From Acidimicrobiia bacterium (GTDB lineage: Bacteria > Actinomycetota > Acidimicrobiia > Acidimicrobiales > Bin134), in contig JAJDYE010000023.1 in assembly GCA_022822905.1 (NCBI GenBank), positions 30,521 through 94,520 on the forward strand: 64,000 nt of DNA, given 5' to 3'. Each line of letters opens with the position of its first letter. The stretch's first letter is position 1. The notes beneath the pieces were generated by a model. That model did no database searches. It saw nothing but the letters and a program-made list of their open reading frames with translations, and was not told the origin of the DNA. Position numbers and translations under genes: made by a program. Positions 6,830 through 27,885 of the stretch are shown here, piece by piece.

Positions 6830-6837
6830 GGCTGATC

Positions 6838-7200: not shown

Positions 7201-7289
7201 ACCACGGCTTTTCCCACTTCAGAGGGGTTTTCTGAAGAATTCCTCCCCTTCCCGGCCCAAACTGTCACTCCCACCGGGATACTGGAAGC

Positions 7290-7999: not shown

Positions 8000-8035
8000 T
8001 CCCCTTTTCGGTCAACGGGCGGTAGCTTTCGGGTA

Positions 8036-8869: not shown

Positions 8870-8887
8870 GCGAGGGCTGAGGCCTCG

Positions 8888-10140: not shown

Positions 10141-10247
10141 CGCCTGCTTAGGCTAACGCCGCCAAAGCGGGGCTAGGAACCCGTGCCGGATGGCCGACCC
10201 CCAGTCCAAGACCCTTGAGGCATCAGGGCAAGGGTTAGTCTCCGGGG

Positions 10248-11150
10248 ATGCCAAGCCCAGAATTCGAAGCAGTTCGGTCGATGCTGGCGGCTGCTCCCGC
10301 GCCCGACCCCTCCGAGACCGCGGCGGAGCGCCGTGCCCGGCTGGACGCCAACGCCGCGGCCACGCCGCTGGCCGACGGGGTGGTGAAGGAGACCGTGGAG
10401 ATCCCCGGTGTGCCCGGCGCCGCCTGGCTGCGCCCCGAGGCTCACGACCCCGAGAGCCTTCCGGCGCTGCTGTTCTTCCATGGCGGTGGCTACCGGGTGG
10501 GATCGATCATCTCCCATCAGGGCTTCGGATCCCATCTGGCCTCATTGATCCCGGCTCGAGTGCTGATGATCGACTACCGGCTGGCGCCGGAGAATCCGTT
10601 CCCCGCCGCGGTGGACGACTGCCTGGCCGCCTACCGCTGGATGCTGGATGCCGGGATCGACCCGGGCCGCATCGCGTACATCGGCGACTCGGCTGGAGGC
10701 GGACTGGTGGGCGCGGTGTTGCTCGGGGCCCGAGACCAGGGCTGGCCGCTGCCCGGCGCGGGCGTGTGCCTGTCGCCGTGGATCGACCTGACCAACTCCT
10801 CGGCCAGTCACGCCGAGCGCGACGAGCTCGATGTGATGTTCGGCCACGACGATGCGGTGACCGCGGCCAGTTGGTACCTGGATGGCCACGATCCCCGTGA
10901 TCCGCTTGCCTCCCCGCTCTTCGGCGACTTGACGGGATTGCCCCCCATGCTGGTCCACGCCGGAGACCATGAGGTGCTGTTGGACGACGCCACCGGGTTC
11001 GCCGCCGCGCTGGAGTCAGCGGGCGTGGAAGTGGACCTCCGCATCTGGCCGGGCATGATCCACGACTTTCAGATCATGTACCCCAACTACCCCGAGGCGA
11101 TCGAGGGGACCGAGGCCATTGCGGCCTTCGTGCGACGCGTCGTGGAATGA
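10248..11150 (+). CDS. Alpha/beta hydrolase, HSL-type esterase/lipase
   Basis: Oxyanion HGGGY motif (FFHGGGY) and nucleophile elbow GDSAGG. Confidence 0.85.
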   Translation: MPSPEFEAVRSMLAAAPAPDPSETAAERRARLDANAAATPLADGVVKETVEIPGVPGAAWLRPEAHDPESLPALLFFHGGGYRVGSIISHQGFGSHLASLIPARVLMIDYRLAPENPFPAAVDDCLAAYRWMLDAGIDPGRIAYIGDSAGGGLVGAVLLGARDQGWPLPGAGVCLSPWIDLTNSSASHAERDELDVMFGHDDAVTAASWYLDGHDPRDPLASPLFGDLTGLPPMLVHAGDHEVLLDDATGFAAALESAGVEVDLRIWPGMIHDFQIMYPNYPEAIEGTEAIAAFVRRVVE

Positions 11151-11199
11151 GGAGGTTGAAGGCGCCGCCTGAATGCGGCGCCGGGTCAGCGCAGTCGGC

Positions 11200-11502
11200 T
11201 CAGGCCGATTCCCGCTCGGTGCGGTGGCGCCGCAGACCGATGACCGGAGTGGAGGGGGCGAAGCCCGCCTCTGCCCGCTCGATCTCCGACTCGCCGCCCC
11301 AGAAGCCGAGCTCGCGCTGGTCGCGGGCCCAACTGCGGCACGCCCGAATTACTACGCACTCCCCACAAATCCGCCGGGCTGCATTCTCCCGCCGCTCACG
11401 AGCCGACGGACGTTCGCCGGCCGGAGGGAAGAACAGCTCGCTCTTCCCTTTGCAGTTCGCATTTTCCATCCACCAAGGACGAGGCTCCATTGCCATCTCC
11501 AC
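11200..11502 (-). CDS. whiB: WhiB-family redox-sensing transcriptional regulator
   Basis: Four Cys in the WhiB arrangement (C-x29-CGEC-x5-C) and a GFWGG turn. Confidence 0.85.
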   Translation of the reverse strand: MEMAMEPRPWWMENANCKGKSELFFPPAGERPSARERRENAARRICGECVVIRACRSWARDQRELGFWGGESEIERAEAGFAPSTPVIGLRRHRTERESA

Positions 11503-11646
11503 CCATTGCCTCCCGTACGAGTCCGGGGGCCTTTTCTCCGTTTGGCTATTACTTCAGCAACCGAAACACCTAGCAATTGCTTAGATATTCGCCTGCTTTC
11601 AAAACAAAAGTTAGACGCTCGAATAGCGCCCGTCACGATATCCTAT

Positions 11647-13200
11647 ATGAATAGTTTTGATAAATCTATCCCGATAAGTGATAGTGCTTCGGCAGGAAGC
11701 GGCAACCTGCCCAAACGCCAAGTACTGGTCATCATACTCACTTTGATGCTGGCTCAGATGATGGCGGCCATCGAGGGCACGGTGGTGTCCACCGCGCTGC
11801 CCACCATCATCGGAGACTTGGGTCGGCGGGACCTGTACACGTGGGTTTTCACGTCTTATTTCATCGCCTCAACCTCAACCACCCCGCTGTGGGGAAAGCT
11901 CTCAGACCTGTGGGGGCGCAAGAGCCTGTACCAGACCGCCATCGTCATCTTCATGGTCGGATCGGTGCTGGCCGGGGTGTCGAGCGGCATGACCATGCTG
12001 ATCGTGTTCCGGGCCATCCAAGGGTTGGGCGCCGGCGGATTGTTCACGCTGTCGATGGCCATCCTGGCCGACGTGCTGTCGCCCCGGGAGCGGGGCCGGT
12101 ACCAGGGATACATGGGCGGGATCTTCGCTCTGGCCACCATCTTGGGGCCGCTGGCGGGGGGTCTGCTGGTGGACTACGCCCACTGGCGATGGGTCTTCTT
12201 CATGGTGCTTCCGCTCGGCGGTATCTCCCTGGTGATGTCGGTCACTCATCTCGAGTTGGCCTTTACCCGCCGCGAGGCCCGGGTGGACTACACCGGAGCG
12301 GGCCTGCTTGTGGTGTGGGTGATCGCCATCATCCTGGCAATGGAGCTGGGGGGCGACTCCTGGGATTGGGTGTCGGCCCCGTCGATCGCGCTGCTTGCCG
12401 CGGGAGTTGGGGGCGTGGCCCTGTTCGTCGCCCAGCAGCGGCGAACAGCCGAGGCCATCCTGCCGCCCCGGCTGTTCCGGTTCCGGCTGTTCAACATCTC
12501 CTGTGTGATCCAGTTCATCGCCGGGGCGGCCATGCTCAGTGCGGGCATCTTCGGACCGCTGTTCCTCCAAGTGGTCACCGATGTGAACGCCACCCGGTCG
12601 GGGCTCCTGCTGGTGCCCATGATGCTGGGGATGCTGCTCACCTCGGTGAGCGCCGGGCAGGTGCTGACCCGTACCGGTCGCTACAAGGCGGTGCCGATCT
12701 TCGGAGCCGGCGTGCTCACCTTGGGGGTGTGGCTGATGTCCACCCTCAGCGGCGAGACGTCGACGGTGACGGCCATGGCCTATCTGTTCACTATGGGCTG
12801 CGGAGTGGGCGCCATCATGCAGGTGCTCTTGGTCGCGGTGCAGAACATCGTCCCCCACGACGACTTGGGGGCGGCAACGTCGGCGTCAAACTTCTTCCGC
12901 TCCTTGGGCCAGACCTTCGGTTCCGCGGTGATGGGGGTCGTGTTCATTTCCCGACTTGACCACTACCTGCCCCGGCTGGTGCCGGGCGGCGAGCAGCTCG
13001 ACATCGAAGCGCTCATCGAGGCCCCCACCCAAATCGGCGCCATTGAGCCCGCGTCGGTGCGGAACGGCATCGTCGAGTCGTTCGCCAATGCCATCGCCGA
13101 CATCTATTGGTGGGCCATCCCGGTGACGGCATTGGCCGTGGTCTTGGCCATGCTGGTGCCCGAGTACCGCCTGCGAGAGAAGGCCGCCATCGGGAACTAG
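11647..13200 (+). CDS. MFS transporter, DHA2 (EmrB/QacA-like, 14-TMS) family
   Basis: ATG 11647 follows an AT-rich leader. Multiple hydrophobic spans. MFS motif A-like GKLSDLWGRK and FRAIQGLGAGG. The longer ORF-track start at 11173 runs antisense through whiB. Confidence 0.8.
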   Translation: MNSFDKSIPISDSASAGSGNLPKRQVLVIILTLMLAQMMAAIEGTVVSTALPTIIGDLGRRDLYTWVFTSYFIASTSTTPLWGKLSDLWGRKSLYQTAIVIFMVGSVLAGVSSGMTMLIVFRAIQGLGAGGLFTLSMAILADVLSPRERGRYQGYMGGIFALATILGPLAGGLLVDYAHWRWVFFMVLPLGGISLVMSVTHLELAFTRREARVDYTGAGLLVVWVIAIILAMELGGDSWDWVSAPSIALLAAGVGGVALFVAQQRRTAEAILPPRLFRFRLFNISCVIQFIAGAAMLSAGIFGPLFLQVVTDVNATRSGLLLVPMMLGMLLTSVSAGQVLTRTGRYKAVPIFGAGVLTLGVWLMSTLSGETSTVTAMAYLFTMGCGVGAIMQVLLVAVQNIVPHDDLGAATSASNFFRSLGQTFGSAVMGVVFISRLDHYLPRLVPGGEQLDIEALIEAPTQIGAIEPASVRNGIVESFANAIADIYWWAIPVTALAVVLAMLVPEYRLREKAAIGN

Positions 13201-14195
13201 TCCTGGTCGGCTTCCCCGCTGGCCCTCTGGATGCGGGCACCTCTTTCGGCAATCAATCTCCCGGCCCCGATCCCATATTCACTCAGCGCCCGCATCACCC
13301 CCAGCAGGCTCTGGTCCCGTTGACGCTCCAACTCGGCCACTGTGCGCCCGGCCGCCTGGACTTCGGTGCCAGCGGCCATGGCCTCAATGAGTTCCTCGGT
13401 GAGCTCGGGGGCCTCCATGTGGGCCCAAGGCAGCTTCAAGGCGGGGCCGAACTGGCTCAGCATGTGCCGCATCCCGCCCTCGCCCCCGGCCAAGTGGAAG
13501 GTGAGATTGGTGCCCATGGCCGCCCAGCGAAGACCCGGTCCGTAGACCACGGCGTCGTCCAGCTCGGCGGTGGTGGCCACCCCGTCGTTCACCAGATGCA
13601 GCACCTCTCGCCACAGGGCTTCCTGGAGGCGGTCGGACAGGTAGCCCTCGATCTCACTTCGCACGACGAGGGGGTGCATGACCAAGTCGTCATAGTGCTC
13701 CACTGCGGCGGCCACCGCATCGGCGCTGGTGGCCTTACCAGCGACCACCTCCACCAGCGGCAGCAGATACACCGGATTGAACGGATGGCCGATGAGCAGG
13801 CGCTCGGGGTGGTGCAGGCCCTCCGCCAAGCGAGTGGGCAAGAGTCCCGAGGAGCTGCTGGCGATCACCGTGCGGGGCGGGGCGGCGTCGTCCAAGCGGC
13901 GTATCAGGGTGCGCTTGATCTCCTCATCTTCGGGAGCGCTCTCCTGGATCCAGTCAGCGGCCTTGGCCACTTCCTCTGGGGAGTCGGCCCACCCCACCCG
14001 GCTGGGGTCGGCCCCGGGGAACAGCCCCAGTTCGGTGGCCGCAGGCCAGGCTCGCTCAATGGCTTCTAACAGCCGGTCTTCGGCGCCGACGGCTGGATCC
14101 CAGGCCACCACGTCGTACCCTCGGGCCAGCACCCGTACCGCCCAGCCCGAGCCAATGACCCCCGTCCCCACCAGTCCGATGGTCTTGGTCGTCAT
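13197..14195 (-). CDS. 3-hydroxyacyl-CoA dehydrogenase family protein (L-carnitine dehydrogenase-like)
   Basis: IGLVGTGVIGSGWA Rossmann motif and HPFNPVYLLPLVEV. Confidence 0.75.
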   Translation of the reverse strand: MTTKTIGLVGTGVIGSGWAVRVLARGYDVVAWDPAVGAEDRLLEAIERAWPAATELGLFPGADPSRVGWADSPEEVAKAADWIQESAPEDEEIKRTLIRRLDDAAPPRTVIASSSSGLLPTRLAEGLHHPERLLIGHPFNPVYLLPLVEVVAGKATSADAVAAAVEHYDDLVMHPLVVRSEIEGYLSDRLQEALWREVLHLVNDGVATTAELDDAVVYGPGLRWAAMGTNLTFHLAGGEGGMRHMLSQFGPALKLPWAHMEAPELTEELIEAMAAGTEVQAAGRTVAELERQRDQSLLGVMRALSEYGIGAGRLIAERGARIQRASGEADQD

Positions 14196-14214
14196 CTCCC
14201 GTGTCGTGCCTTCT

Positions 14215-14604
14215 TCACCACAGAACCCGGACGGGGAACTCTCGGAACGCGGTGTCTCTCGTGACCAATATCAACGACTCCAACTCCGCCTGAGCGGCCA
14301 AAATCCGGTCGAACGGGTCTCGGTGTTCTGCAACATAGCTTCCGGCACGCAGACCGTGCTGGTAGGTGACCGGCAAGTGCCGCATCGCCGCGTCGAGGGC
14401 AAACTCATTGAATCGCAATACAGCACCCTCATATTCGGGCAGCCGGCCGAGCCGGAACTTTGTGGCAATCTCCCAAGCGCTCGCCGCGCTGACGAATACG
14501 TTGTTTTGCGAATCCCTCAGTGCTTCTTGCGCGCTATTCGATAGCGCAGGATCGGCCGACCACCACCACAGCAGCGCATGAGTGTCGAGCAGCAGGTCAT
14601 TCAC
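14215..14604 (-). CDS. vapC: PIN-domain ribonuclease toxin VapC
   Basis: LLLDTHALLWWW...SAASAWEIATK...TRD. The GTG start at 14604 overlaps the antitoxin stop (GTGAATGA). Confidence 0.8.
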   Translation of the reverse strand: MNDLLLDTHALLWWWSADPALSNSAQEALRDSQNNVFVSAASAWEIATKFRLGRLPEYEGAVLRFNEFALDAAMRHLPVTYQHGLRAGSYVAEHRDPFDRILAAQAELESLILVTRDTAFREFPVRVLW

Positions 14605-14851
14605 CTGAATACGCGCCCTCCCACGCCGCGAGCTCTTCTTCGGGAAGTGGTTCAAAGAACTCAGGACCGACGACCAATCCGGCTAGCTGCCCACAGCGGC
14701 GGGGTCCGCTGGGCGCCAACGGCATCAGGCGAGCGTAGGGCGTGCCCGCTTTGGCCAAAATGATCTCTTCCCCATTGTGCGCTCGTTCCAACAGCCTCGA
14801 CAAATGGGTCTTGGCTTCGTGGACATTAACCATCGCTGACATTCTCATCAC
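14597..14851 (-). CDS. Phd/YefM-family type II antitoxin
   Basis: VNVHEAKTHLSRLLERAHNGEEIILAKAGTPYARLMPL. The true start may be an internal Met (14833 or 14842). Confidence 0.8.
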   Translation of the reverse strand: MMRMSAMVNVHEAKTHLSRLLERAHNGEEIILAKAGTPYARLMPLAPSGPRRCGQLAGLVVGPEFFEPLPEEELAAWEGAYSGE

Positions 14852-14884
14852 TCCTGCCTGGTATTTTGCGCTTGCGAAAATGAC

Positions 14885-14905
14885 TTAGTCTGATGACTAG
14901 ACTAA
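14885..14905. promoter_or_regulatory. Candidate TA operator: inverted repeat TTAGTCT-N7-AGACTAA
   Basis: Perfect 7-bp arms in the 143-nt AT-rich gap between the phd start and the jetC-like start. Statistically weak on its own. Confidence 0.3.
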
Positions 14906-14994
14906 TAGAAGATTCTCCAGTCAGCAACTACGCGTAGTCGCATTGTTGGTTCACACCGGGGGCTATGGCCAAAGTGTCACCGTGACCCACTAGC

Positions 14995-17727
14995 TTGCTT
15001 GCCGTGAGCCAATCGGAGCATTCGGCTGCCGGGCAGCCTTTGGCAGACGCCAATGCGGCTAGCAGGCGATGGCGGTTGAACCGCGCTGGCATCGTCAACG
15101 TGTACCAGTACGAGAACGAGGTTCTGCATTTCGGAGGCGGTCGGCTGCTGCTGCGAGGGGTAAACGGGTCGGGCAAGACGACGGCAATGAACATGCTGCT
15201 CCCGTTTCTGCTTACCGCCCGTCTGCGCCGCATTGACGCCGCAGGCGAGCAGAGCGGCATGCTCAAAGCTTGGATGCTCAATGGCCGCGACGATGCCCAA
15301 CCAGTCGGCTACCTGTGGATCGAGTTCGAGCGGCAAGGTGAATTCCTCGTATGCGGTTGCGGCATCAAGGCCAGCCGGTCGTCGGACGCGGTGACCACAT
15401 GGTGGTTCATCACCTCCAAGCGGCCGGGCTTCGACCTTGATCTAGTCGAGCGGAGAATCCCCCTATCCGCTGATGCGCTGAAAGTCACCCTCAGCGGAGA
15501 CCAGGTTTTCCATGAACGCCAACGCAACGGCTACCGCAAGGAAATCGAGCGCCGTTTGTTCGACGGAGCATCCATCGACCAGCACATCGGGCTCATCAAC
15601 GTGGTCCGCAGCCCCCGGGTTGGCGACCGGATCGATGTCGACCTCCCCGCCCACCTGATCGATGCTCTGCCCCAGCTCTCCGAGCAGGCGCTGTCCGAGG
15701 CGGCCCAGCCGCTCGACGATCTGGAAGAGCACCGCGGCAACGTGGCCGAATTGGCCCGGACATTGGATGCGCTACGAGGGCTGCTCACCGTCTATCGGGC
15801 CTATTGCGTCGGCGACCTCCGCCAACGGGAAACTGCGGGAAGGGACCAGCTTGACGACCAGCGTGCCAGTTCTGAGCAAGAGACGCTGGCTCGGCGTGAG
15901 GCCGCGACCGCAGAGGCCGAGGTCGGACGACTGGACACCGCTATCGCCGAGCTGGACAAGGATGCCCACCGGCTAGCCGGCCAAATCGACGCCTTGGAGA
16001 AATCACAGGTTTATCGCGACGGCCAAGACCTCGATGCCCTGCGTCAGCATGTGGGCACTCTCGACACCCTGCGCAATAAAGCTGTTGAACGGGTTGCCGA
16101 CCGGACTCGGCGAGTCGAGCGTGCGGCCAGCGAGCTGATACAAGCCCGACAACGCTGCCGAGACGATATTGAGAGGTTCAACGCTGGATTGGCGACCGCA
16201 ACTGAACTGGGCGGGCGCTGTCGAGTCGACCGGCGGCCCCCCAATCCTGTGGTGCTAGCCGAAAGCGCGCTGGGCAAGCCGGTTCAGGCCGAATCCACGA
16301 TGCCCGGCACCGAGACGACCGAACCTGCCGATCAACTTGATTGTGAGGAGATCAATCGCCAGATCGCCGCAGCAGAGGGGGCAGTTCTCCGTCGTCAGGC
16401 TGACATCGAAGCAGTCGAATCAGCTCTGGGCAGTCTCGAATCTGCTGTGCAGCTGCTCAGCCTGGCCGAGTCGGCACGCGACAGCGCAGCCCGCGATTCA
16501 GAGAGTGCGGCGCAGCGGCTTAAGGAACAGCGAGAACACCTCGACACCTTCTGCCAGGAGTGGTCAGCCCATACCCGTCTTTGGGCGTCGGCAGTCCAAC
16601 CGGTTCTAGACGAAGTCGGCATTCGGGCGCCGGCCAACGCTGCATGGGCCGTGCCCGCTGATGACAGCCCTCCTGCAACAACCACTGGCACCCAAACCCG
16701 GCCAGACGGCGCAAGCACGCATGATGCAGACTCGGTGGTTGTCCATCTCAGAGCAGAGCACGGCAGGTTGCAGGATGAGGCCGATCTGCTCGTTGACTTT
16801 CGGCGAGATGCGGTTGCGGCGATCGGGCAGCGGTTGCTCCGCGAGCAGAGGGTGCTGGAAGAAGCGCAGGCGCTGGTTGACGAACTCGCGGCCCGAACCG
16901 AGCCTGATCCGCCTCGGTTTGATTGGCAGACGCCCTCCGACTACTGCCTGGCCGACCTGATCGACTTCGCGCCCCATCTCGAAGACGATGGACAAGCGGC
17001 TCTCGAGGCCGCTCTTCATGCATCGGGGCTGCTTTCAGCCCGCTTGGGCGATGGCCCCGCCGTGGAGTTGGACAATGGTGAGCTGATTGCCGTCGTCGCC
17101 GGCGGCGTCTCCAGCCCACTCAGTGAACACCTCACGGTGACCGTGCCCAACCATCTCATCGGCACCGTGGATGAGGGTTTGATCGCCAAGCTGCTCGACT
17201 CCATCTCGTACGACTTGTCGAGCGATGCCTCCACCGTGGTCACATTCGATGGCGCGTTCCGGGTGGGGTCGCTTCGTGGTCGTCACTCCAAGAAGCAAGC
17301 CGAGTTCATCGGCGTAACCGCCCGCCGCGCTGCGCTGGATCGCGCTCGGCAAGACGCAGTCGAACGTCTTGCCCAAGCCCAAGCCGTTTTCACCAGCTGC
17401 GAAGCCGAGCAGGACAGGTGCCGGTCGTCGCTCGACCAAGCCAAACAGCATCGGTCCAACCTGCCGGCCATCGACGACATCACCGTTGCATCGGCCCGAG
17501 TCGATGACGCTTTTCAAAGAGCCGACGAGGCCGAACGGAACTTGGCGGCAGCCATCCGACAAGCTGCCGAAGCCGAGCGCCGACAACTGCCATGGCACGC
17601 CTGGCCCAGCCATGCCTCGGTGTCATCCGACAAGCTGCCGAAGCCGAGCGCCGACAACTGGATGAGTCCAACGCTCTCCACCAGAAAGCGACAACGCTGG
17701 CGCTGCCAGCTGATCGCGCCGGTCTGA
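14995..17727 (+). CDS. jetC: SMC-like ABC ATPase (JetC / TIGR02680-like), N-terminal fragment: 865 native codons plus 45 out-of-frame codons
   Basis: RWRLNRAGIVNVYQYENEVLHFGGGRLLLRGVNGSGKTT (Walker A) followed by long Ala/Glu/Arg/Leu coiled-coil sequence. The frame is lost at 17590 inside a 71-bp insertion. TTG 14995 or GTG 15004 start. Confidence 0.8.
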   Translation: MLAVSQSEHSAAGQPLADANAASRRWRLNRAGIVNVYQYENEVLHFGGGRLLLRGVNGSGKTTAMNMLLPFLLTARLRRIDAAGEQSGMLKAWMLNGRDDAQPVGYLWIEFERQGEFLVCGCGIKASRSSDAVTTWWFITSKRPGFDLDLVERRIPLSADALKVTLSGDQVFHERQRNGYRKEIERRLFDGASIDQHIGLINVVRSPRVGDRIDVDLPAHLIDALPQLSEQALSEAAQPLDDLEEHRGNVAELARTLDALRGLLTVYRAYCVGDLRQRETAGRDQLDDQRASSEQETLARREAATAEAEVGRLDTAIAELDKDAHRLAGQIDALEKSQVYRDGQDLDALRQHVGTLDTLRNKAVERVADRTRRVERAASELIQARQRCRDDIERFNAGLATATELGGRCRVDRRPPNPVVLAESALGKPVQAESTMPGTETTEPADQLDCEEINRQIAAAEGAVLRRQADIEAVESALGSLESAVQLLSLAESARDSAARDSESAAQRLKEQREHLDTFCQEWSAHTRLWASAVQPVLDEVGIRAPANAAWAVPADDSPPATTTGTQTRPDGASTHDADSVVVHLRAEHGRLQDEADLLVDFRRDAVAAIGQRLLREQRVLEEAQALVDELAARTEPDPPRFDWQTPSDYCLADLIDFAPHLEDDGQAALEAALHASGLLSARLGDGPAVELDNGELIAVVAGGVSSPLSEHLTVTVPNHLIGTVDEGLIAKLLDSISYDLSSDASTVVTFDGAFRVGSLRGRHSKKQAEFIGVTARRAALDRARQDAVERLAQAQAVFTSCEAEQDRCRSSLDQAKQHRSNLPAIDDITVASARVDDAFQRADEAERNLAAAIRQAAEAERRQLPWHAWPSHASVSSDKLPKPSADNWMSPTLSTRKRQRWRCQLIAPV
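17553..17660 (+). repeat. Direct duplication: two perfect 37-bp copies (17553-17589 and 17624-17660) flanking a 34-nt unique spacer
   Basis: CATCCGACAAGCTGCCGAAGCCGAGCGCCGACAACTG occurs twice, 71 nt apart. Both copies encode IRQAAEAERRQL in the two different frames. Confidence 0.95.
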
Positions 17728-19421
17728 GCGCCACCCGCGGTGAATTGAGGGAGATGCAGGCAGAGCTGTGGCAGTGTCGATCCCATCTCAACGCGCTGGA
17801 GCGTTCCTTCGAAGGATGGAGACACTCGGTCGCCCATTGGCAAACAGAGACCTGCGATCTCAACAACGAGCAAGCTGAACAGCGAACCTTCGAGACCAAA
17901 CACCGCCGAGAGCAGGCCCGACTGGACACCATCGAAGAGAACATCGGTGCTGAGTACGCAGAGATCCTTGCTGCCCGTGATTCCTGCCAACGCAAGATGG
18001 ATGATGTGGAAACCCGCCTGCCGGCCACCCGCAAGAAGCGAGAACTCGCCGTTGAACGACGGGCCGACACGCGCGCCAAGGCCGACGCCGCCGCCAGCCA
18101 GCGGGCCGCATCCGAGCAGAAGTGCGAGGAGATGCGGCAGTCATTGGCCGCAGTGCTCGCCATCCCGGGGCTACGAGCGGCTGTCGCCCACCCCGAGCAC
18201 CCTGATTCGGGGCATGTATCCACGGTGGCCACCGGTGCCGCCGGTCTCGGCGAACTGGTCGAGGCTGTCGAGCACCTCTTGGGCACCAGCCAAAGCGGCG
18301 ACGGCACCGATCCCTCCCCGCCATCTCCACCAAGTGGGGAACGAGATGCCGGCACAGGCACGCAGGGCGGCGCGGCCACAACCACCGCCGACGGGGTTCG
18401 GCAATCGCTGCTACGGCGTCGAGACACCCTCGGTGCCGGATGGGATGCCGAGGCCAGACAGCCTGATCCAGCCCAGCCGCTGGTCATTGAGGTAACCGGG
18501 CCGCTGGGCAAAAGGGCCCCGCTGGTCGAGGCGATGCAGACGGTGGAGCAGCAACATCAGCAGCTCGCGGGCTTGCTCAGCCGCAAGCAGGACGACGCAT
18601 TGCGCGAACTGCTCCAAGGGTTGGTCGCCCGCGAGGTGGCCGAGAAAGTTCGGGGAGCGAAGCGGTTGGTCGATCTCATGAACCAGCGGCTCGAAACGGT
18701 TACCACTGCCCATCATGTCGGGGTGAGGCTGCGATGGCGCCGCTCCCCTGAACTCGATCCAGCCACAGCCCGCAAGGTCGACCTGCTGGCGACTCTCCCC
18801 GACTTGCGAACCGATGAAGATGAGCAGGAGTTGCGACTTGCGCTCTCCAATCAGCTGGACGAGGCCCGAAGGCTCCATCCAGATACGCCTTACCGACAGC
18901 TCATCGCCGACACGCTCGACTACAAGCAGTGGCATGACTTGGCGGTCATGCTGCGACGGCCGGGCAGCAGCGATGTCCGGCTCAGCCGACGCACACCGCT
19001 GTCGGAAGGCGAGAAGAAACTGGTGACCTACCTGCCCTTGTTCGCCGCGGTGGCCGCTTCCTATGACGCCCTGGCCGAGCAGCATCGCACTCCCGACAAC
19101 GGCCCGCCGGGCATCGCCCGGTTCATCCTGCTCGACGACGCATTCGCCAAGGTGTCCGAAGATAACCACGATCAGTTGTTCGGGTTGCTCGTGGATCTAG
19201 ATCTCGACTTGATTGCCACCAGCGAACGGCTGTGGGGCACCCTCCCGAGCGTCCCCGAGTTGGCGATCATCGAGGTCTGTCGGGATGCGACCCTCAATAC
19301 CATCCTCCTGGAGCACTACCATTGGGACGGCATCACCCGCGAACCCCGAGACACACCAGACGGCAGCACCAGCGCTCGCGCTGCCGTGAACCTCGACCAA
19401 GGGCACCGGTCCCTGCAATGA
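17592..19421 (+). CDS. jetC: SMC-like ABC ATPase (JetC / TIGR02680-like), C-terminal fragment
   Basis: Its ATG lies inside the 34-nt spacer. Coiled coil, then an ABC-signature-like LSEGEKK and Walker B/D-loop ARFILLDDAFAKV. The stop overlaps the next ATG. Confidence 0.75.
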   Translation: MARLAQPCLGVIRQAAEAERRQLDESNALHQKATTLALPADRAGLSATRGELREMQAELWQCRSHLNALERSFEGWRHSVAHWQTETCDLNNEQAEQRTFETKHRREQARLDTIEENIGAEYAEILAARDSCQRKMDDVETRLPATRKKRELAVERRADTRAKADAAASQRAASEQKCEEMRQSLAAVLAIPGLRAAVAHPEHPDSGHVSTVATGAAGLGELVEAVEHLLGTSQSGDGTDPSPPSPPSGERDAGTGTQGGAATTTADGVRQSLLRRRDTLGAGWDAEARQPDPAQPLVIEVTGPLGKRAPLVEAMQTVEQQHQQLAGLLSRKQDDALRELLQGLVAREVAEKVRGAKRLVDLMNQRLETVTTAHHVGVRLRWRRSPELDPATARKVDLLATLPDLRTDEDEQELRLALSNQLDEARRLHPDTPYRQLIADTLDYKQWHDLAVMLRRPGSSDVRLSRRTPLSEGEKKLVTYLPLFAAVAASYDALAEQHRTPDNGPPGIARFILLDDAFAKVSEDNHDQLFGLLVDLDLDLIATSERLWGTLPSVPELAIIEVCRDATLNTILLEHYHWDGITREPRDTPDGSTSARAAVNLDQGHRSLQ

Positions 19422-20998
19422 CCGATGCCTCCCCCTCCCTCGCCCCCAATGGGAATGCCGCACCGGCCCGACAGCTATTCCGCTATCTGGGCGGCGACGA
19501 ATGGGCGGAGTACCGGGCCATCCTCCGCGTGTTCGCCGGCACATTCTTCACCGATTTCAGTCCCGAAGAAGTAGAAGTCGAGGTCGCTCCCGCCGGAGTT
19601 GACCCGTCAGCGGTGCCCGACCGGCTGGAGAGTCTCTACCGCTGGGGCAATCTCACCGTGTCGTCATCGGTCGGCAACCCTTCGAGCCTCGAAGACTACA
19701 ACCTCAAGCGCAAGCGCTATCTCATCACTCGGGCCGGACAGGAGGTATTCGAGTTTGTTGAGCAGATGCTGGCCAACGTGGACCAAATCGGCGATGTGCA
19801 AGCCGGTCGCCTCCGCGACCTCCACCGCGCCCTGATAGTGCTAGGCCAGCATGGTGAAGCCGGCTTCGACCGAGTCGGCGGTCAAGACCTAGGCGATGCG
19901 GTGCGGGCAGTGTTCGATCTCCATGAGCGCTTCACCGACGAGTTGACGCAGTTCTTCGCCGAACTCAACCAGTGGCAAAGCCGCTATGACCTCGACGCCG
20001 ACGAGGTCCACTTCTTCGCCAGCGTACTGGTGGACTACGTAGCGGAGCAGCTCACCGAGGTCGAGCGCATGACCCGGCCGATCGCCCGGGCGCTTGAGCA
20101 GATTCTGCCCCGACTTGACACCCTGCTTCCCGCACTGCGGTCCGGCTTGGCCGCGCGCGTAGACGAAGCCGGATTGGCGGAGAATGTGGCGGTACGGCGG
20201 CTGCCCGGCACAGAATCCGCCGATTGGCGATACCTCGAAGCATGGTTCACCGCCAGCCCCGGAAGGCCATCGCGGCTCGACCTGCACACCCGTCAGGCGG
20301 TGGCCGCGGTGCGAACCCTCACCGCCAATGTGACCCGGCTGTCTCGAGTCGGACTCGGCGCGGCATCGAGGCGCTCCGACTTCGTGCGGCTTGCCAGGTT
20401 CTTCGATCAGGCCGCCACTCCCGATGATGCTCATCAGATCGCGGCTGGCGCATTCGGACTCGGCTCGTGTCGCCGTCTCAGCGCGCTCGCCGATGACGCC
20501 GATGACCCCGTCCCCACAATTACCCCATGGCGGGACGCGCCCCGAGCAGTGGTCCCAGTGGCCTTGCGAGAGCGCGGCGAAACCGGATTGCGCGGCCAGC
20601 CGACGCCGATCCCCAACCGAGGGAGCGAACGAGAGATGATGCGCCGACGCCGCGAGATTGACCGCTCCACTCGTGAGAATGCGGCCACCGAACTGCTGGC
20701 CTGCGCGGGCAACGACGGGCAAATCGACGGTGCCCAGTTGTCGTTGGCCTCATTCACCATGCTGCGCGATCTCATCAGCCGATCTGGTCTGCGATCTGGC
20801 ATCGCGGCCGACAGCCGCTCCGCAACCGACGCTGGAGTCCGGTGCGAAGTGCTGCGGGTCGAAGGAGGGCGCACTGTGGTCTGCTGCCCCGACGGTCAGC
20901 TCACCATGCACGATCTCATCGTCACCGTCACCCCGGTCAAGAACAACTCATCGGCGGCCTCAACCTCTACTCCATCGCCGATGCCCGCGTCCCTATGA
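19418..20998 (+). CDS. jetA: JetA-like subunit (DUF2397 / TIGR02677-type)
   Basis: ATGA overlap with jetC. The N-terminus LFRYLGGDEWAEYRAILRVFAGTFFTDFSPEEV resembles my recollection of the TIGR02677 family. Operon position supports the call. Confidence 0.65.
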   Translation: MTDASPSLAPNGNAAPARQLFRYLGGDEWAEYRAILRVFAGTFFTDFSPEEVEVEVAPAGVDPSAVPDRLESLYRWGNLTVSSSVGNPSSLEDYNLKRKRYLITRAGQEVFEFVEQMLANVDQIGDVQAGRLRDLHRALIVLGQHGEAGFDRVGGQDLGDAVRAVFDLHERFTDELTQFFAELNQWQSRYDLDADEVHFFASVLVDYVAEQLTEVERMTRPIARALEQILPRLDTLLPALRSGLAARVDEAGLAENVAVRRLPGTESADWRYLEAWFTASPGRPSRLDLHTRQAVAAVRTLTANVTRLSRVGLGAASRRSDFVRLARFFDQAATPDDAHQIAAGAFGLGSCRRLSALADDADDPVPTITPWRDAPRAVVPVALRERGETGLRGQPTPIPNRGSEREMMRRRREIDRSTRENAATELLACAGNDGQIDGAQLSLASFTMLRDLISRSGLRSGIAADSRSATDAGVRCEVLRVEGGRTVVCCPDGQLTMHDLIVTVTPVKNNSSAASTSTPSPMPASL

Positions 20999-22197
20999 CC
21001 ACCCCACCCGCAGCCACAGAGACGGCCAATCGACAGCAGGAGCTGGATCTCCGCAGCGCTGCCCGCCATCTCGTCAGACATCCGCTTGTGCTGGCCGAAA
21101 ATGATCCTGAGATGCTGGCGCTGATCCGCCGACACGAGCACACACTCGACCGTTGGTTCACCCAGCGCTTCGGCTATCGCCTTCAGGTCACCGCCGACAC
21201 TGCCCGCTTGTTCAAGTCGTCGGTGGTCGCCCGTCGGCGCCCGCTGCTGACGGCAACTAGCCAGAGCCGTGCCTTCTCCTCGCGTGAATACACGTTGCTC
21301 GCCCTGTCCTTGGCCGCGGTCGCCGCCGGGCCGACCGTGATCAGCCTTCGCGATCTGATCCACGAGATCCGCTCTGCGGCCACCGATGCCGACATCGTCC
21401 TGACCGAAGAAGCAACCGACCGCCGCGCCTTGGTCACCGCCTTGAAGTGGATGATCCAGTACGGCTTGGCCAGCGAGATGCACGAGCACATTGACCGCTA
21501 TGTCTCCGATGAATCCGCCGACGCAGTGCTGCGCATCCGCCCCGACCGCGTCGCGCTGTTGCCACTTCCGGCGCTGGCCAGTTCGGAGGCTGCGCCGCAA
21601 TTGCTCGACCGCTCCGACCGGCGGCTGTCTTCGCGGGCATGGATGCGCTCCACATTGTTGGAAGAGGCGGTGCTGTACCGCACCGACCTCACCGACGGCG
21701 AGTGGGCCGAACTGCGACAGCGCCTGGGAGAGGAGGGAGCGATCTTCGACGACATGTTCGGGCTACGGCTTGAATCAAGGGCCGAGGGCATCATGGCCAT
21801 CGATCCCGACAACGAGATGACCGACAGCCGCTTCCCCCGCAGCGGCACCGTCGGGCACGCGGCCCTCCTGCTCCTCGACCGGCTCGCCCACTCCGTTTCT
21901 TCAGCACCGGTGGAAGAACAACCCGACAACCAGATAGCCGAGAACCGCGATCCTGATGGGGCGGGGCGGACCCCAATCACCCGTGATGAGGTCGTCGAGG
22001 TAGTGACTGCACTGGCCTCCGAACACCGCCGCTATTGGTCACAAGACGCTCAGAACCCAGAGCGTTTCGCCAACGACATCCTCGATCTGCTGGAAGACCA
22101 CCGCTTGGTCGAGGTGACCGGCGATGTGGTCTGGCTCCTGCCCCCCGCCTGGCGATACTCGGTAGACGTCCAATATCAGCAGGACTCGCTGTTGTGA
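20995..22197 (+). CDS. jetB: JetB-like subunit (DUF2398 / TIGR02678-type)
   Basis: ATGA overlap with jetA. 400 aa. LVRHPLVLAENDPEMLALIRRHEHTLDRWFTQRFGYRLQVTADTARL is as recalled for TIGR02678. Confidence 0.6.
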   Translation: MTTPPAATETANRQQELDLRSAARHLVRHPLVLAENDPEMLALIRRHEHTLDRWFTQRFGYRLQVTADTARLFKSSVVARRRPLLTATSQSRAFSSREYTLLALSLAAVAAGPTVISLRDLIHEIRSAATDADIVLTEEATDRRALVTALKWMIQYGLASEMHEHIDRYVSDESADAVLRIRPDRVALLPLPALASSEAAPQLLDRSDRRLSSRAWMRSTLLEEAVLYRTDLTDGEWAELRQRLGEEGAIFDDMFGLRLESRAEGIMAIDPDNEMTDSRFPRSGTVGHAALLLLDRLAHSVSSAPVEEQPDNQIAENRDPDGAGRTPITRDEVVEVVTALASEHRRYWSQDAQNPERFANDILDLLEDHRLVEVTGDVVWLLPPAWRYSVDVQYQQDSLL

Positions 22198-23468
22198 CAT
22201 CCGACCCATTCCCCGAGCCGTCCCCCCGCTCGACCGCTGCACCTGCGGCATCCCGGCCTGTCCCCGAGTCGCTGCTCACCTCTGGACTGGAGCCGGTGTG
22301 GTGCGCAACCCGCCAACGGCTCGACCGCTTCGGCCCCCAGCGCCGGGGCACGATCAGCTGCCCGCCGCTCGACCCCGCGAGCGCCCTGGCCATCGAGTCG
22401 CTGCTGGGGCGAACCTCAGCCAGGCGCTTGGACTTGGAGGAATTGGAAGCAGCCCTCGTGGCCCGTGGCATCGGCGCCGATCTTTGCGACGCGCTCACTC
22501 GACTTGGATATCCCCCGTCGGCCGAGGCCGCCCGACGAAGGAGCGATCGTTCCCGCGCCCAAGAGGCCCGGGCGGCGCTGCACGACACCGTCACCGCTTG
22601 GGACGAGCCTTGGACTGCTGAGTGGGCTGATGGCATCGCGGGCGCTGGATTATTGCGAGACTTGGACGGCGAAAGCGCTGCCCGTCTCACCGCCGATGTG
22701 CGCCGCTTGCTCGACTATCTTGATCGCGTTCGACCCGAAGGCATCAGCCGCACAGAGACCGCCGCCGCTCTCTACGGGTCGGCGCACGCCCTCGACGCTG
22801 GCACAAGGCGGGCCAGCGCGGTAACCCACGCTCTGCGCCACCGGATCGGCCCGCTGGATGAGCGCGAGCTCTGGGAGGCGGCTGGCATCCTTCCTGACCG
22901 CGTTTCGGCTCCAGCACTTGTCTGGTGGCTTCCGGTCGCTGGCTCTTCGGCATTGGATGTGCAGATCCGATTTGCCCTCCAGGCTGGGTTGCCCCTTCAC
23001 ATCAGCTTGTTTGCCCTGCGAAAGCACCCCATCTCCGTCGATGCAGGCACCCCCGTGCTTGTCGTCGAGAATCCAAGACTGGTCGAGGCCGCTGCCGAGC
23101 GCAGCCTGCCGGTCTGCGTGATCTCGTCCAATGGGAACCCCTCCACTGCGGTTACCACCCTGCTTCGCCAACTCCAGCAAGCCGAGGCATCCCTCTGGTA
23201 TCACGGCGACTTCGACTCGCCAGGCATAGCCATATGCCGCCGAATGCACGAATTCGGCTGCTCACCGTGGATGATGGATTCCCCCGAATACGTCGGCGCG
23301 ATCCGACAAGCGGAAGAGTCCGATGTGCAACTCATGTCGGATCACAAAGAATGCGGCCCAACTCCGTGGGATCCAAAGCTCCAAGCTGCGTTCGACCACC
23401 ACCGCCTCATCATCCACGAAGAGTTCGTGCTCGACGGCGTTCTCAACCGCTTCAGCCGAGTCAACTAG
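22194..23468 (+). CDS. jetD: JetD-like subunit (DUF2399 / TIGR02679-type) with C-terminal Toprim-like nuclease domain
   Basis: GTGA overlap with jetB. C-terminus VLVVENPRLVE...VISSNGNPSTA...LWYHGDFDSPGIAICRRM gives the Toprim E ... DxD pattern. Confidence 0.7.
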   Translation: MTSDPFPEPSPRSTAAPAASRPVPESLLTSGLEPVWCATRQRLDRFGPQRRGTISCPPLDPASALAIESLLGRTSARRLDLEELEAALVARGIGADLCDALTRLGYPPSAEAARRRSDRSRAQEARAALHDTVTAWDEPWTAEWADGIAGAGLLRDLDGESAARLTADVRRLLDYLDRVRPEGISRTETAAALYGSAHALDAGTRRASAVTHALRHRIGPLDERELWEAAGILPDRVSAPALVWWLPVAGSSALDVQIRFALQAGLPLHISLFALRKHPISVDAGTPVLVVENPRLVEAAAERSLPVCVISSNGNPSTAVTTLLRQLQQAEASLWYHGDFDSPGIAICRRMHEFGCSPWMMDSPEYVGAIRQAEESDVQLMSDHKECGPTPWDPKLQAAFDHHRLIIHEEFVLDGVLNRFSRVN

Positions 23469-24737: not shown

Positions 24738-25139
24738 CTATACAGACCTGCTCCCAGGAGCAACCGAGGCCGCCTCAACCCTTGAATGATCTTGCCCTTC
24801 GAGAGAAGACGGCTCCGGCGATGATGGGTGGGTGAAATTGACTGAGCGGTCGCCAACGCTGATTTCGATGCTGAGCGTTCCGCCAAGAGCGGAAGTGAGC
24901 TTGCACAAAGTGGACAGCTTGGGGTCAGCTGACCGCTCGAGCCTCGACACTCCCCCCTGTGTGATGCCGAGCCTCTCAGCCAGATCGACCTGATTGATGC
25001 CGAGCTCACTCCGCAGTTCTGCCAGCTGAAAGGCGAAGATCTTCGCCTCCACCTTCTGCCCGTACTCCTCCGCCCTGGCACTGCGCACCGGATCGGCATC
25101 AATGGGAGCAGCAAGTTCGTCAAAACTCTTGGTCGTCAT
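24738..25139 (-). CDS. XRE-family HTH antitoxin (HigA-like), apparently orphan
   Basis: LAELRSELGINQVDLAERLGITQGGVSRLERSADPKLSTLCKLTSALG. ATG at 25139. Long low-complexity C-terminal tail. Confidence 0.7.
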   Translation of the reverse strand: MTTKSFDELAAPIDADPVRSARAEEYGQKVEAKIFAFQLAELRSELGINQVDLAERLGITQGGVSRLERSADPKLSTLCKLTSALGGTLSIEISVGDRSVNFTHPSSPEPSSLEGQDHSRVEAASVAPGSRSV

Positions 25140-25143
25140 GAAA

Positions 25144-25203
25144 TCAATCCGAGAGCGAGTTCCACCAGACTTCGAACTGGTGCGCAACCTCCACCTTCCA
25201 CAC
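25144..25203 (-). pseudogene. 19-codon stub resembling the N-terminus of a RelE/HigB-type toxin
   Basis: GTG-WKVEVAHQFEVWWNSLSD-TGA ends 4 nt before the antitoxin ATG. The pattern is like the first ~20 aa of HigB/Gp49-type toxins, but the rest of the gene is missing. Confidence 0.3.
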
Positions 25204-25220
25204 CCGATAATACTACTCAC

Positions 25221-25234
25221 AACTCATATGAGTT
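25221..25234. promoter_or_regulatory. Perfect 14-bp palindrome AACTCATATGAGTT, candidate operator
   Basis: Lies in the divergent AT-rich gap between the toxin-stub/HTH unit and the methyltransferase gene. Confidence 0.4.
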
Positions 25235-25330
25235 ACGAGGGCTTTCCAGGCTTCAGCAATCGCAAAGATGATTCTTCAACGACACCTCAGGTTCCCCGAA
25301 TGTGTCACTGCCTGGGAGTAGGGTCGTGTC

Positions 25331-26281
25331 GTGGGTTATAGAGGCGACTCAGAGGGCACCGCGGACCGCCAAATACCTGTCCCTGGCTGTCGACCCGCTG
25401 ATGCTGCATCAGATCGACAGCCAGACTCGCATGCTCGTTTGAGCGTGGGCGTTGATGGTCCGCTGGATGAGCTGAGTGGCCCCCTTTTGGTGTGCGGCCC
25501 AGCGATCGAGGCCTTGGGATTACTCCCTGATGGATGTGTGCAGACGGTGATCACATCACCGCCGTATTGGTCGCTTCGGGATTACTCGGCCGAGGGTCAG
25601 ATTGGCCGCGATGACGCTCTGGGCGAATACGTCAAGAGCATTGTGATGGCGTTCGACCAGGTGCGCCGGGTACTGACGGATAGCGGCACTGTGTGGCTGA
25701 ACGTGGGCGACTCCTACACCTCGGGAAATCGCAGGTATCGGGCACCTGATCGCAAGAACCGGGCTCGGGCTATGGCGGTTCGGCCTCCCACTCCCGAAGG
25801 GTTGAAGCCCAAGGACCTGATCGGCGTTCCGTGGCGGTTGGCGTTCGCTCTCCAGGATGCGGGGTGGTGGCTGCGTTCCGAAGTCATCTGGTACAAACCC
25901 AACGCCCACCCCGAGTCAGTCTCCGATCGCCCTACCAAGTCCCACGAGACGGTGTTCCTACTGTCCAAGAACCAGGACTACTACTACGACACAGCCGCGG
26001 TGAAGGGCCCCAACGGCCGCCGCCTCCGAACCATGTGGGACATCAACACAGAGCCCCGGAGAAAGAACGCTGGCGGCATCGAAGACCACCCAGCCGTCAT
26101 GCCCATGACCCTGGCCCGCCGCTGCATCCAAATCACCAGCCGCCCAGGCGACACCGTCCTTGATCCATACGCCGGATCAGGGACCACCTTGATTGCTGCC
26201 CAAGATCTCGGTCGAAACTGGGCAGGCATCGAGCTCAACCCTGCCTACGTCGATCTCATTGAGCGCCGGATCACCGAGTGA
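25331..26281 (+). CDS. Beta-class amino-DNA methyltransferase (N4-cytosine or N6-adenine; the SPPY motif favours m4C)
   Basis: Motif IV VITSPPYW lies upstream of motif I TVLDPYAGSGTT (beta permutation). The exact start is uncertain. Confidence 0.85.
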   Translation: MGYRGDSEGTADRQIPVPGCRPADAASDRQPDSHARLSVGVDGPLDELSGPLLVCGPAIEALGLLPDGCVQTVITSPPYWSLRDYSAEGQIGRDDALGEYVKSIVMAFDQVRRVLTDSGTVWLNVGDSYTSGNRRYRAPDRKNRARAMAVRPPTPEGLKPKDLIGVPWRLAFALQDAGWWLRSEVIWYKPNAHPESVSDRPTKSHETVFLLSKNQDYYYDTAAVKGPNGRRLRTMWDINTEPRRKNAGGIEDHPAVMPMTLARRCIQITSRPGDTVLDPYAGSGTTLIAAQDLGRNWAGIELNPAYVDLIERRITE

Positions 26282-27069
26282 ACCAGCCGTACGACCAATC
26301 CACAAATATGGCTGACCTGAGGGCAAGTATTGAAGACCTCTCTCCCATGGGAGAGAGGTTCCTCGCCAGGATCATCGAATCGCTCTCGTCCCCGCTCCAA
26401 GCTGAGATCTCAGATACCTGGCTCGGCCAGACACCTGGGTGGACCGAGTACTTCGGCCTCACGATCTCAGTACACCACGGCACCACCGCCGAGCCTCTGG
26501 GCCTCGTCGGCTTCGAAGTGGCATTCCGCAACGCTTGCGAAGCAGTCGGCTGGGCAGTCGACGAGCCAGGTTCCGCCACCCAGCGCTTCGTGGACATGAC
26601 AGTCCAAACCACCGAGGGCACTGAGAGGAAGCTCTCCTTGAAGTCCACCGCCGCCCTCAGGTTGTCTGCAACCACCGCTCACATCTCCAAGCTCACCGAG
26701 GCTGCCTGGATTCAGGACGTTCGATCCGCCAAGACAAGGCGAGACCAAACCCTCGAACTGTTCCGTCAGTACCGAGAAGCCGTGGACTCCATCATCATGC
26801 TCCGAGCCTTCCGCCCCGACCGCACCTCCCTCCCCACCAAATACCAGCTCCTAGAAATCCCCACCGGCGTCTTCACGTCCCTCGAAGACGCCCCCCTCGA
26901 AGCCTTCGCCGCCGACGGACCTACCATCGACTGCACCTACCTAGGCGACCCTGTCGCCGCCCGCATCTCCCTCGACCGCTCCGACGCCAAGATCACCGTC
27001 AAGCAAATCAAACTCTCAGCCTGCACCCTCCACGCTGAATGGCATTTGGGCATACCGAGGGTCCTATGA
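26278..27069 (+). CDS. Putative type II restriction endonuclease cognate to the upstream methyltransferase
   Basis: GTGA overlap with the MTase stop. No recognisable family, but there is a possible PD-(D/E)xK-like core (FVDMTV...ERKLSLKS). Lower GC than the surroundings. Confidence 0.5.
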   Translation: MNQPYDQSTNMADLRASIEDLSPMGERFLARIIESLSSPLQAEISDTWLGQTPGWTEYFGLTISVHHGTTAEPLGLVGFEVAFRNACEAVGWAVDEPGSATQRFVDMTVQTTEGTERKLSLKSTAALRLSATTAHISKLTEAAWIQDVRSAKTRRDQTLELFRQYREAVDSIIMLRAFRPDRTSLPTKYQLLEIPTGVFTSLEDAPLEAFAADGPTIDCTYLGDPVAARISLDRSDAKITVKQIKLSACTLHAEWHLGIPRVL

Positions 27070-27090
27070 GGGTACGTCGCCCCTGAGATC

Positions 27091-27885
27091 TTGACAGCCA
27101 TCGACCCCGGTCAGCCAGACACATGGCCCGCAGACATTCGAGTCCACGTTGAGCACCTCGTGCAGGGTTGTAGGGCAAATCCACAGAACTCACGAGACAC
27201 GTCATCATTCGAGCTTGAACTCGAAAACGTCGGTGCCTTCATGGCAGAGCGGGAGTTCCGCGACGTCCTAGGCGAAAGACACATAGTGCTCTATCACGCA
27301 ACCCGACTACTTCCCCATGAGGTGACAGCGGTTCGGCTGCAAGGACTGCAGGCGCTCACCGAAGAGGGTCGGCACCTGCGACTCAATGCTGTTGTCGAGC
27401 ACCATGGCAATGAGATTGGAACCGAGCGACTCGAGGCCCTAAAGGGATCGGGGCCTCTGTCCTGGGATGAACTTCAACGCAGTGCTCGACTTGGGGTGTT
27501 GTACGCAGTCACACCCCTAGGCGAAACGTTTGCAGATGCTGGCAGCACCATGACTGTTTTTCTCGAGAACTGGGGCGGCGAGAGCTTCTACTGGACAGCG
27601 AAAACCGAGGACGAGGTCGCCGAAACTATAAGTGAACTCACACGCAGGAGCCTCGCCACGATTGCGGAGTTCGCCATCCCTGCGTCCTGGCTGGATCGGT
27701 ACCAATACCTCTGGCAAATATTCGCAGGACAGCTTGGTGGTTGGGATAGCCCTTGCGGGGAGTTTCGAAATAGCCAGAACATTCCTCCCGAATACATCCT
27801 CGACCTAGTCCACGAAGCCTCACCAAGGTGGCCTAAGGAGATCGGTCCTTTAGTGTCCCCACAGGACTTCCGTTTGACCGTTTGA
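27091..27885 (+). CDS. Hypothetical protein (264 aa), no recognisable domain
   Basis: Coding-like ORF 21 nt after the endonuclease stop, same strand, similarly AT-enriched. TTG start is uncertain. Confidence 0.5.
   Translation: MTAIDPGQPDTWPADIRVHVEHLVQGCRANPQNSRDTSSFELELENVGAFMAEREFRDVLGERHIVLYHATRLLPHEVTAVRLQGLQALTEEGRHLRLNAVVEHHGNEIGTERLEALKGSGPLSWDELQRSARLGVLYAVTPLGETFADAGSTMTVFLENWGGESFYWTAKTEDEVAETISELTRRSLATIAEFAIPASWLDRYQYLWQIFAGQLGGWDSPCGEFRNSQNIPPEYILDLVHEASPRWPKEIGPLVSPQDFRLTV

Follow-up and report, generated by a model that had tools for sequence, protein, structure and literature searches.

Wadjet systems carry out ATP-dependent restriction of small circular DNA, an activity described for the type II system of Neobacillus vireti and for type I systems (bioRxiv 10.1101/2025.03.10.642339; PMC10586767). 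In the N. vireti type II complex, JetABC motor units pair up as a dimer, the KITE subunit is of the tandem type and the hinge is channel-less; JetABC combined with JetD and ATP cleaves circular, not linear, DNA (bioRxiv 10.1101/2025.03.10.642339). Here we describe a related four-gene locus in 64,000 nucleotides (nt) of contig JAJDYE010000023.1 from an Acidimicrobiia bacterium, the whole of this stretch being referred to below as the window. Judged by the families of its proteins, the locus is a type II Wadjet system (JetA2B2C2D2; TIGR02677-02680) of a subfamily that carries its genes in the order jetC-jetA-jetB-jetD (C-A-B-D), and its jetC, encoding the structural maintenance of chromosomes (SMC) ATPase, is broken by a fresh insertion of 71 nt, with loss of function as the most likely outcome. 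The parts of the locus are listed below, with protein lengths in amino acids (aa) and open reading frames abbreviated as ORFs.

14995-17589, + strand: jetC 5′ part, encoding the N-terminal ATPase lobe, ascending coiled coil, hinge and beginning of the descending coiled coil
17590-17660, + strand: insertion of 71 nt, made up of a 34-nt filler (17590-17623) and a second 37-nt copy of the preceding sequence (17624-17660)
17592-19421, + strand: jetC 3′ ORF, 609 aa, encoding the remaining coiled coil and the C-terminal ATPase lobe; native sequence from 17625
19418-20998, + strand: jetA, 526 aa, type II kleisin (DUF2397/TIGR02677)
20995-22197, + strand: jetB, 400 aa, type II tandem-KITE subunit (DUF2398/TIGR02678)
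22194-23468, + strand: jetD, 424 aa, DUF3323 and DUF2399 Toprim nuclease (TIGR02679)

The proteins were searched with the hidden Markov models (HMMs) of Pfam, NCBIfam (TIGR cut-offs) and PADLOC, JetC being scored as the repaired protein from which the 71 nt had been removed. Repaired JetC reached 598 bits against TIGR02680 (cut-off 462.85) and an E value of 4e-265 against the PADLOC JetC2 model PDLC00553. JetA matched PF09660 (E 3.7e-96), TIGR02677 (181.5 bits, cut-off 165.85) and PADLOC JetA2 (E 6.5e-128), and JetB matched PF09661 (E 1.2e-76), TIGR02678 (163.4 bits, cut-off 124.65) and PADLOC JetB2 (E 6.8e-90). JetD was recognized by PF11796 (E 6.4e-28), PF09664 (E 3.6e-28) and PADLOC JetD2 (E 8.9e-93), and passed TIGR02679 narrowly, with 197.1 bits against a cut-off of 196. 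PADLOC places all four proteins in type II sub-models. Matches to the N. vireti structure agree with this assignment: JetA matches the JetA chain (PDB 9QE0_E; E 7.5e-21), the 609-aa JetC ORF matches the C-terminal head of JetC (9QE0_A; E 1.7e-15), and a profile of JetB orthologues matches JetB (9QE0_D) over residues 15-362 of 389 (E 2.2e-22), while JetD and the single JetB sequence had no sequence match in the PDB.

The four genes lie on the same strand and are joined by start/stop overlaps (ATGA at 19418, ATGA at 20995 and GTGA at 22194), with TTG at 14995 or GTG at 15004 as the start codon of jetC. The ATPase motifs are a Walker A sequence (GVNGSGKTT, 15157-15183), a signature motif (LSEGEK, 18999-19016) and a Walker B sequence (FILLDDAF, 19122-19145). 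In jetD, the Toprim glutamate motif LVVENP (23058-23075) is placed 46 aa ahead of the DxD motif GDFDSPG (23205-23225), a spacing kept in 75 of the 77 sites found. A preliminary description of this DNA had proposed a Wadjet locus of the TIGR02677-02680 type, with DUF2397 and DUF2398 proteins encoded by the middle genes, these same overlaps, the three ATPase motifs and a Toprim-like E...GDFDSPG module, and in all of these respects it is borne out by the HMM scores, the 9QE0 matches of JetA, JetB and JetC, and the positions given above.

The locus has the same components as N. vireti JetABCD (9QE0/9QE1), namely a DUF2397 kleisin, a DUF2398 tandem KITE, a TIGR02680 SMC and a DUF3323/DUF2399 Toprim nuclease, and a similar mechanism of ATP-dependent scanning and circular-DNA cleavage would be expected. 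By analogy, JetC, JetA and JetB of an intact complex would together form a dimeric loop-extruding motor that scans DNA and, on meeting a small circular DNA, would activate the Toprim nuclease JetD, leading to cutting of the plasmid. The two systems differ in gene order (A-B-C-D in N. vireti and C-A-B-D here), in the ATPase motifs of JetC (LDEAF and FSGGEK in N. vireti, LLDDAF and LSEGEK here) and in the frameshift that interrupts jetC in the window.

The insertion in jetC

Through the inserted DNA, a 37-nt sequence is present in two perfect direct copies, at 17553-17589 and at 17624-17660, with the 34-nt filler between them. Having a length of 2 mod 3, the 71 nt shift the jetC frame by +2, and the gene as encoded consists of two ORFs in different frames, one at 14995-17727 (ORF1, 910 aa) and the other at 17592-19421 (ORF2, 609 aa), with IRQAAEAERRQL present in the translations of both. 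The single first gene of roughly 1450 aa in the preliminary description does not exist in this form; it is recovered when 17590-17660 is deleted, which yields one JetC ORF of 1451 aa whose alignment to orthologues (1434 and 1414 aa) has no gap at the junction. The break follows residue 865, in a stretch that aligns to the coiled coil past the hinge (TIGR02168 positions 647-942), the descending coiled coil.

In this strain the insertion is genuine and of recent date. It is absent from all orthologues compared, and in four relatives whose JetC proteins are approximately 88-90% identical, the 37-nt segment is single and the filler missing. An ENA scaffold (L088) with 99.74% identity to the window across 21 kb has a single copy and a jetC called at 1424 aa, and a Logan contig of run SRR16351696 (L090), 99.8-99.9% identical, also has a single copy, with jetC called at 1448 aa. 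This sister run assembles uninterrupted through the insertion site, whereas run SRR16351697 gives two Logan contigs, 100% identical to the window, of which one ends at 17582, 30 nt into the first copy, and the other starts at 17631, the start of the last 30 nt of the second copy. Because these breakpoints are exactly those that a 37-nt repeat leaves in a de Bruijn graph with k=31, reads of SRR16351697 contain the repeat-filler junctions.

The Wadjet system is probably switched off in this strain. ORF1 keeps the Walker A motif, ascending coil and hinge, and ends with an out-of-frame tail of 45 aa, but it is without the signature motif and Walker B, both of which are carried by ORF2. Programmed frameshifting was considered and rejected, as near-identical strains are without the insertion and the overlap at 17592-17727 shows no slippery heptamer.

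Two further explanations would leave the system working. Near-identical strains of sister samples carry an intact jetC, and the de Bruijn graph of a mixed population is indistinguishable from that of a pure mutant, both of which would fit an artefact of the assembly or library, or else a minority variant in an organism whose jetC is intact and functional. However, the k=31 Logan assembly, made independently from the same run, is interrupted precisely at 17582 and 17631 while that of SRR16351696 runs through the site, and comparable insertions occur in two complete-chromosome records of metagenome-assembled genomes (MAGs; L045 and L051), where they were verified against orthologues; we regard an artefact or minority variant as improbable. 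It is more improbable still that a functional SMC is assembled from two pieces, the 910-aa and 609-aa fragments both being produced and joining again by way of the antiparallel coiled coil. The heads of SMC and Rad50 proteins can be rebuilt from N and C parts supplied separately, the filler supplies ORF2 with an in-frame ATG at 17592, and the overlap of ORF2 with ORF1 would permit translational coupling; however, no Shine-Dalgarno-like sequence is visible before this ATG, the N-terminal fragment bears the 45-aa out-of-frame tail, and jetC is split in this manner in none of 80 related loci (described below) and in no near-identical strain. Because of this absence, the split is not a selected architecture.

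Loss of function through the split jetC is the reading we favor, and some observations do weigh against it. A pure mutant and a mixed population give the same assembly graph, and the intact allele is possibly also present in the sample. An SMC coiled coil might also withstand a nick in one of its helices, provided that both fragments are produced. In addition, even the intact ATPase of this subfamily may behave unlike the N. vireti enzyme, because aspartate replaces the Walker B glutamate and SEGE replaces SGGE in the signature motif.

Perfect 37-nt repeats located 34 nt apart are removable by slipped-strand deletion, and since such repeats can be lost in this way, the split allele would be revertible in principle; precise deletion between the two copies would restore jetC.

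A parallel is found in Mycobacterium smegmatis, whose EptABCD (Wadjet) operon is mentioned in PMC10586767 as bearing a null mutation that gave a highly transformable laboratory strain. In both cases a natural loss-of-function allele would affect an actinobacterial Wadjet operon, and by analogy better plasmid uptake would be expected of the strain described here. The mention of EptABCD concerns a null mutation for which neither gene nor lesion is named there, whereas the lesion in the window is a 71-nt duplication-plus-filler in jetC. The closest genomes to the window are sponge-associated Acidimicrobiia MAGs, including 'Candidatus Poriferisocius', and the broken jetC suggests that near-identical symbiont strains are polymorphic for anti-plasmid immunity.

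Origin of the insertion and similar events in related loci

The 80 related loci were fetched from species-representative genomes, with JetA identities to the window of 48-96%, and direct repeats were scanned in all of the related loci (1.57 Mb; perfect repeats of at least 24 nt at spacings of 10-600 nt). The spacings have a sharp maximum at 71-73 nt. Foreign-filler events, in which a native segment is duplicated around an unrelated filler, number at least 12 in the 1.57 Mb, and in most of them the duplication measures 34-41 nt and the filler 30-38 nt. A tentative second class has a period of 61-63 nt, with duplications of 29-30 nt and fillers of 32-33 nt. The events are given below by locus, with accession, position and sizes as duplication plus filler in nt.

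L051 (OZ220727.1), 1506-15079: six 71-73-nt events of 37+35, 38+34, 34+38, 37+35, about 36+37, and 67+5; one additional event of 47+21 (68 nt); second class, 30+32
L023 (JAPPJC01), 2421 and 3878: 36+35; second class, 29+32
L045 (OZ242297.1), 2573: 41+30
L063 (VXTM01), 11388 and 14732: 38+35; second class, 30+33

Such events number at least eight within 15 kb of the L051 locus, and several of these are in-frame insertions of 2x72 nt in jetC, in jetD and at the jetC/jetA junction. Exactly two identical copies of the filler are present in each of four L051 events. For the L045 event and five of those in L051, orthologues have one copy of the duplicated segment and no filler, an example being L051 JetD, which reads RRLLDR-[LDQTEPVSAGR]-[SGHHICGLRTDST-LDQTEPVSAGR]x2-TELAAAL where the L037 protein reads RRLLDR-LDHMEPVSASR-TELAAAL. 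The fillers all differ in sequence and none was copied from within 300 nt on either strand; those of L023 are rich in guanine and cytosine (GC) inside AT-rich DNA. Repeats in L014, L029, L035 and L037 were set aside as a different phenomenon, these being intergenic repeats resembling repetitive extragenic palindromes and common to several loci.

Several simple sources of the window insertion were rejected. The filler has no match of at least 14 nt elsewhere in the 64 kb, where a single 13-mer is the longest, and its alignment to the 300-nt flanks is no better than that of shuffled sequences, which argues against a nearby origin or one elsewhere in the window. Simple tandem duplication does not account for it, as the 34 nt flanking the repeat on either side are unlike the filler, and a tiny mobile element was dismissed because the fillers of different events are unrelated in sequence.

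It is possible, if tentatively held, that the insertion arose by off-target CRISPR adaptation, with Cas1-Cas2 placing a 34-nt spacer in jetC and duplicating a 37-nt target. Such an origin is compatible with loss of function and concerns the source of the lesion only. The 37 + 34 nt geometry fits the sizes of CRISPR repeats and spacers, and a genuine CRISPR array is located directly 3′ of jetD in one related locus (L062; NZZV01000218.1, 13810-14371), with the repeat GCCGCAATGAAGCGCCCCGCCGAAGCGGGGCGAGAG (36-37 nt) and spacers of 36-40 nt; this contig ends within the array, cas genes are not visible there, and the repeat core gave single hairpin-like matches and no arrays in metagenomes. The sharp 71-73-nt peak and the varied, non-local fillers missing from orthologues are also in keeping with spacer integration. 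Off-target integration by E. coli Cas1-Cas2, as cited from Nivala et al. 2018 in PMC7054753, makes new repeat-spacer-repeat loci, and the events here resemble what is cited there in having a repeat-length target duplication around a spacer-length, non-local insert; they differ in that no Cas1-Cas2, leader-like motif or protospacer was identified. Within the 64-kb window there are no cas genes and no CRISPR array, and the viral and metagenome contigs searched hold no exact protospacer for the window filler or its sub-strings, nor for four other fillers. Moreover, the 67+5, 47+21 and 41+30 events break the fixed geometry, and the doubled identical fillers of four L051 events require a second step, such as slippage.

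The main alternative to a CRISPR origin is break repair of an error-prone kind or template switching during replication, such as fill-in of staggered ends during non-homologous end joining, which we consider somewhat unlikely. A duplication with filler is a known footprint of end joining, Actinomycetota commonly have Ku and LigD, and no Cas1-Cas2 was identified. However, break repair gives variable sizes, while the period here is held tightly at 71-73 nt across different genomes, and the filler is without a local template. The broader proposal that misfiring Cas1-Cas2 knocked out the Wadjet system, that such insertions recur in these Acidimicrobiia, and that their repeats make the knock-out a reversible, stochastic switch for plasmid uptake is doubtful when taken as a whole. 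Were the CRISPR-misfire reading true, the insertions would exemplify off-target spacer integration in nature and give adaptation a measurable cost, and a repeat-length duplication with spacer-length filler would be a searchable genomic signature.

Gene order, ATPase motifs and decay across the subfamily

The four genes were placed in each of the 80 related loci by tblastn, and all 80 have the order C-A-B-D on a single strand as far as the fetched DNA extends, with no other order found. By comparison, the order A-B-C-D (TIGR02677-02678-02680-02679) is annotated in the four distant type II loci examined, from Streptomyces, Pseudonocardia, Cupriavidus and Ralstonia, whose JetA proteins are 25-34% identical to that of the window. 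These distant loci share with the window the four families, a single strand and overlapping genes; they differ in gene order and in being situated on large plasmids or chromids, whereas the window locus occupies a conserved chromosomal site. The preliminary description had taken A-B-C-D as the usual order and C-A-B-D as a departure from it, and had allowed that C-A-B-D might prove common in the subtype. The first part stands for the four distant loci, but C-A-B-D is the only order found among the 80 relatives and is no oddity of this locus: it is a fixed trait of a large Acidimicrobiia-centered subfamily. The subfamily includes an isolate, Desertimonas flava (L072), and its proteins are already matched end to end by the PADLOC sub-family HMMs; as a Wadjet locus the present one is routine, adding to a well-sampled subfamily.

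Loci of the C-A-B-D order with JetA identities of 50-66% were also observed in eight MAGs (L027, L044, L060, L061, L069, L074, L080 and L081) bearing non-actinobacterial labels, these being Gammaproteobacteria (Granulosicoccaceae, Azotimanducaceae), Spirochaetaceae and 'Proteobacteria'. Either horizontal transfer or binning contamination would account for their presence there.

The Walker B sequence LLDDAF, with aspartate at the expected position of the catalytic glutamate, and the LSEGEK signature are kept across the whole C-A-B-D subfamily (JetC of L002-L083). The A-B-C-D locus of Streptomyces (L084) has LLDDAF together with LSQGEQ, and the Cupriavidus locus has LDEAF, as does N. vireti JetC, in which it accompanies FSGGEK. 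Aspartate thus stands in place of the catalytic glutamate, under evident conservation. The permuted operon, in which the SMC gene comes first, and the aspartate-bearing Walker B motif may be of interest to those studying SMC ATPase mechanisms.

Inactivation of Wadjet is recurrent and independent within the subfamily. In L005 an in-frame TAG (8277-8279) is found nine codons beyond the site of the window's insertion in jetC, and a DDE transposase (PF13701) lies within jetC of L020 (5638-7499) and within jetA of L064 (11116-12724). Small frameshifts, for which sequencing error is possible, are present in L017 (about 6826) and L046 (about 8084-8153), the B and D genes are affected by a deletion in L019, and the loci of L061 and L063 are truncated or rearranged. 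Repeated decay of this kind bears on how sponge symbionts balance defense against gene uptake.

Genomic neighborhood

The region 5′ of the Wadjet genes contains, in order, a major facilitator superfamily transporter (+), a 3-hydroxyacyl-CoA dehydrogenase (-), a PIN-domain toxin (-) and a Phd antitoxin (-), followed by jetCABD (+). On the 3′ side are a short-chain dehydrogenase (-), a Cupin_5 protein (-), a helix-turn-helix (HTH) regulator (-), a type II methyltransferase (+) and a SmaI-like endonuclease (+). The defense-related and toxin-antitoxin features are as follows.

14215-14604, - strand: PIN-domain toxin, VapC-like (PF01850, E 3.6e-16), 129 aa as called on L089, a contig with 100% identity to the window
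14597-14842, - strand: Phd/YefM antitoxin (PF02604, E 3.9e-08)
24738-27069: type II restriction-modification (R-M) module identified with Pfam and PADLOC, comprising an HTH controller (-), an N6/N4 methyltransferase (+) and a SmaI-like endonuclease (+)

The preliminary description had placed the locus directly downstream of a VapBC pair. A toxin-antitoxin pair does adjoin jetC, in the form of Phd/YefM and PIN genes, but it is on the minus strand and divergent from jetC. Outside the syntenic genus-level group, the pair occurs 5′ of jetC in L078 alone and is absent from roughly 60 other loci, and it is not a conserved part of the Wadjet module across contexts. The divergent 150-nt intergenic region between Phd and jetC holds repeated TGACT(T)AG / CTAGAC motifs (14860-14915) that look like a toxin-antitoxin operator. 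A consensus scan of this region found no sigma-70-like promoter, a promoter and terminator scan of the locus gave nothing above shuffled expectation, and no tRNA or Rfam family was found in the window. The statement that no transposase or integrase lies nearby agrees with the Pfam matches of the called genes and with our own scans, which revealed none within about 10 kb.

Third-position GC content is 0.68-0.75 in the Wadjet genes and 0.83-0.92 in the neighboring metabolic genes, which suggests a foreign origin for the Wadjet genes despite their conserved chromosomal site within the genus. The R-M islet (24738-27885) has a GC content of 0.59 compared to 0.66 in its flanks and is variable, some close relatives having it and others lacking it. 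A 264-aa ORF (27091-27885) within the islet matched neither Pfam nor PADLOC models. Elsewhere in the window, a 214-aa ORF (40804-41448, -) with no Pfam match has a third-position GC of 0.49 and is located among high-GC metabolic genes. The low-GC stretch with which the window ends encodes, at 61312-63535 (-), a second type II R-M pair, in which an EcoRV-like endonuclease (PF09233) is accompanied by a C5 cytosine methyltransferase (PF00145).

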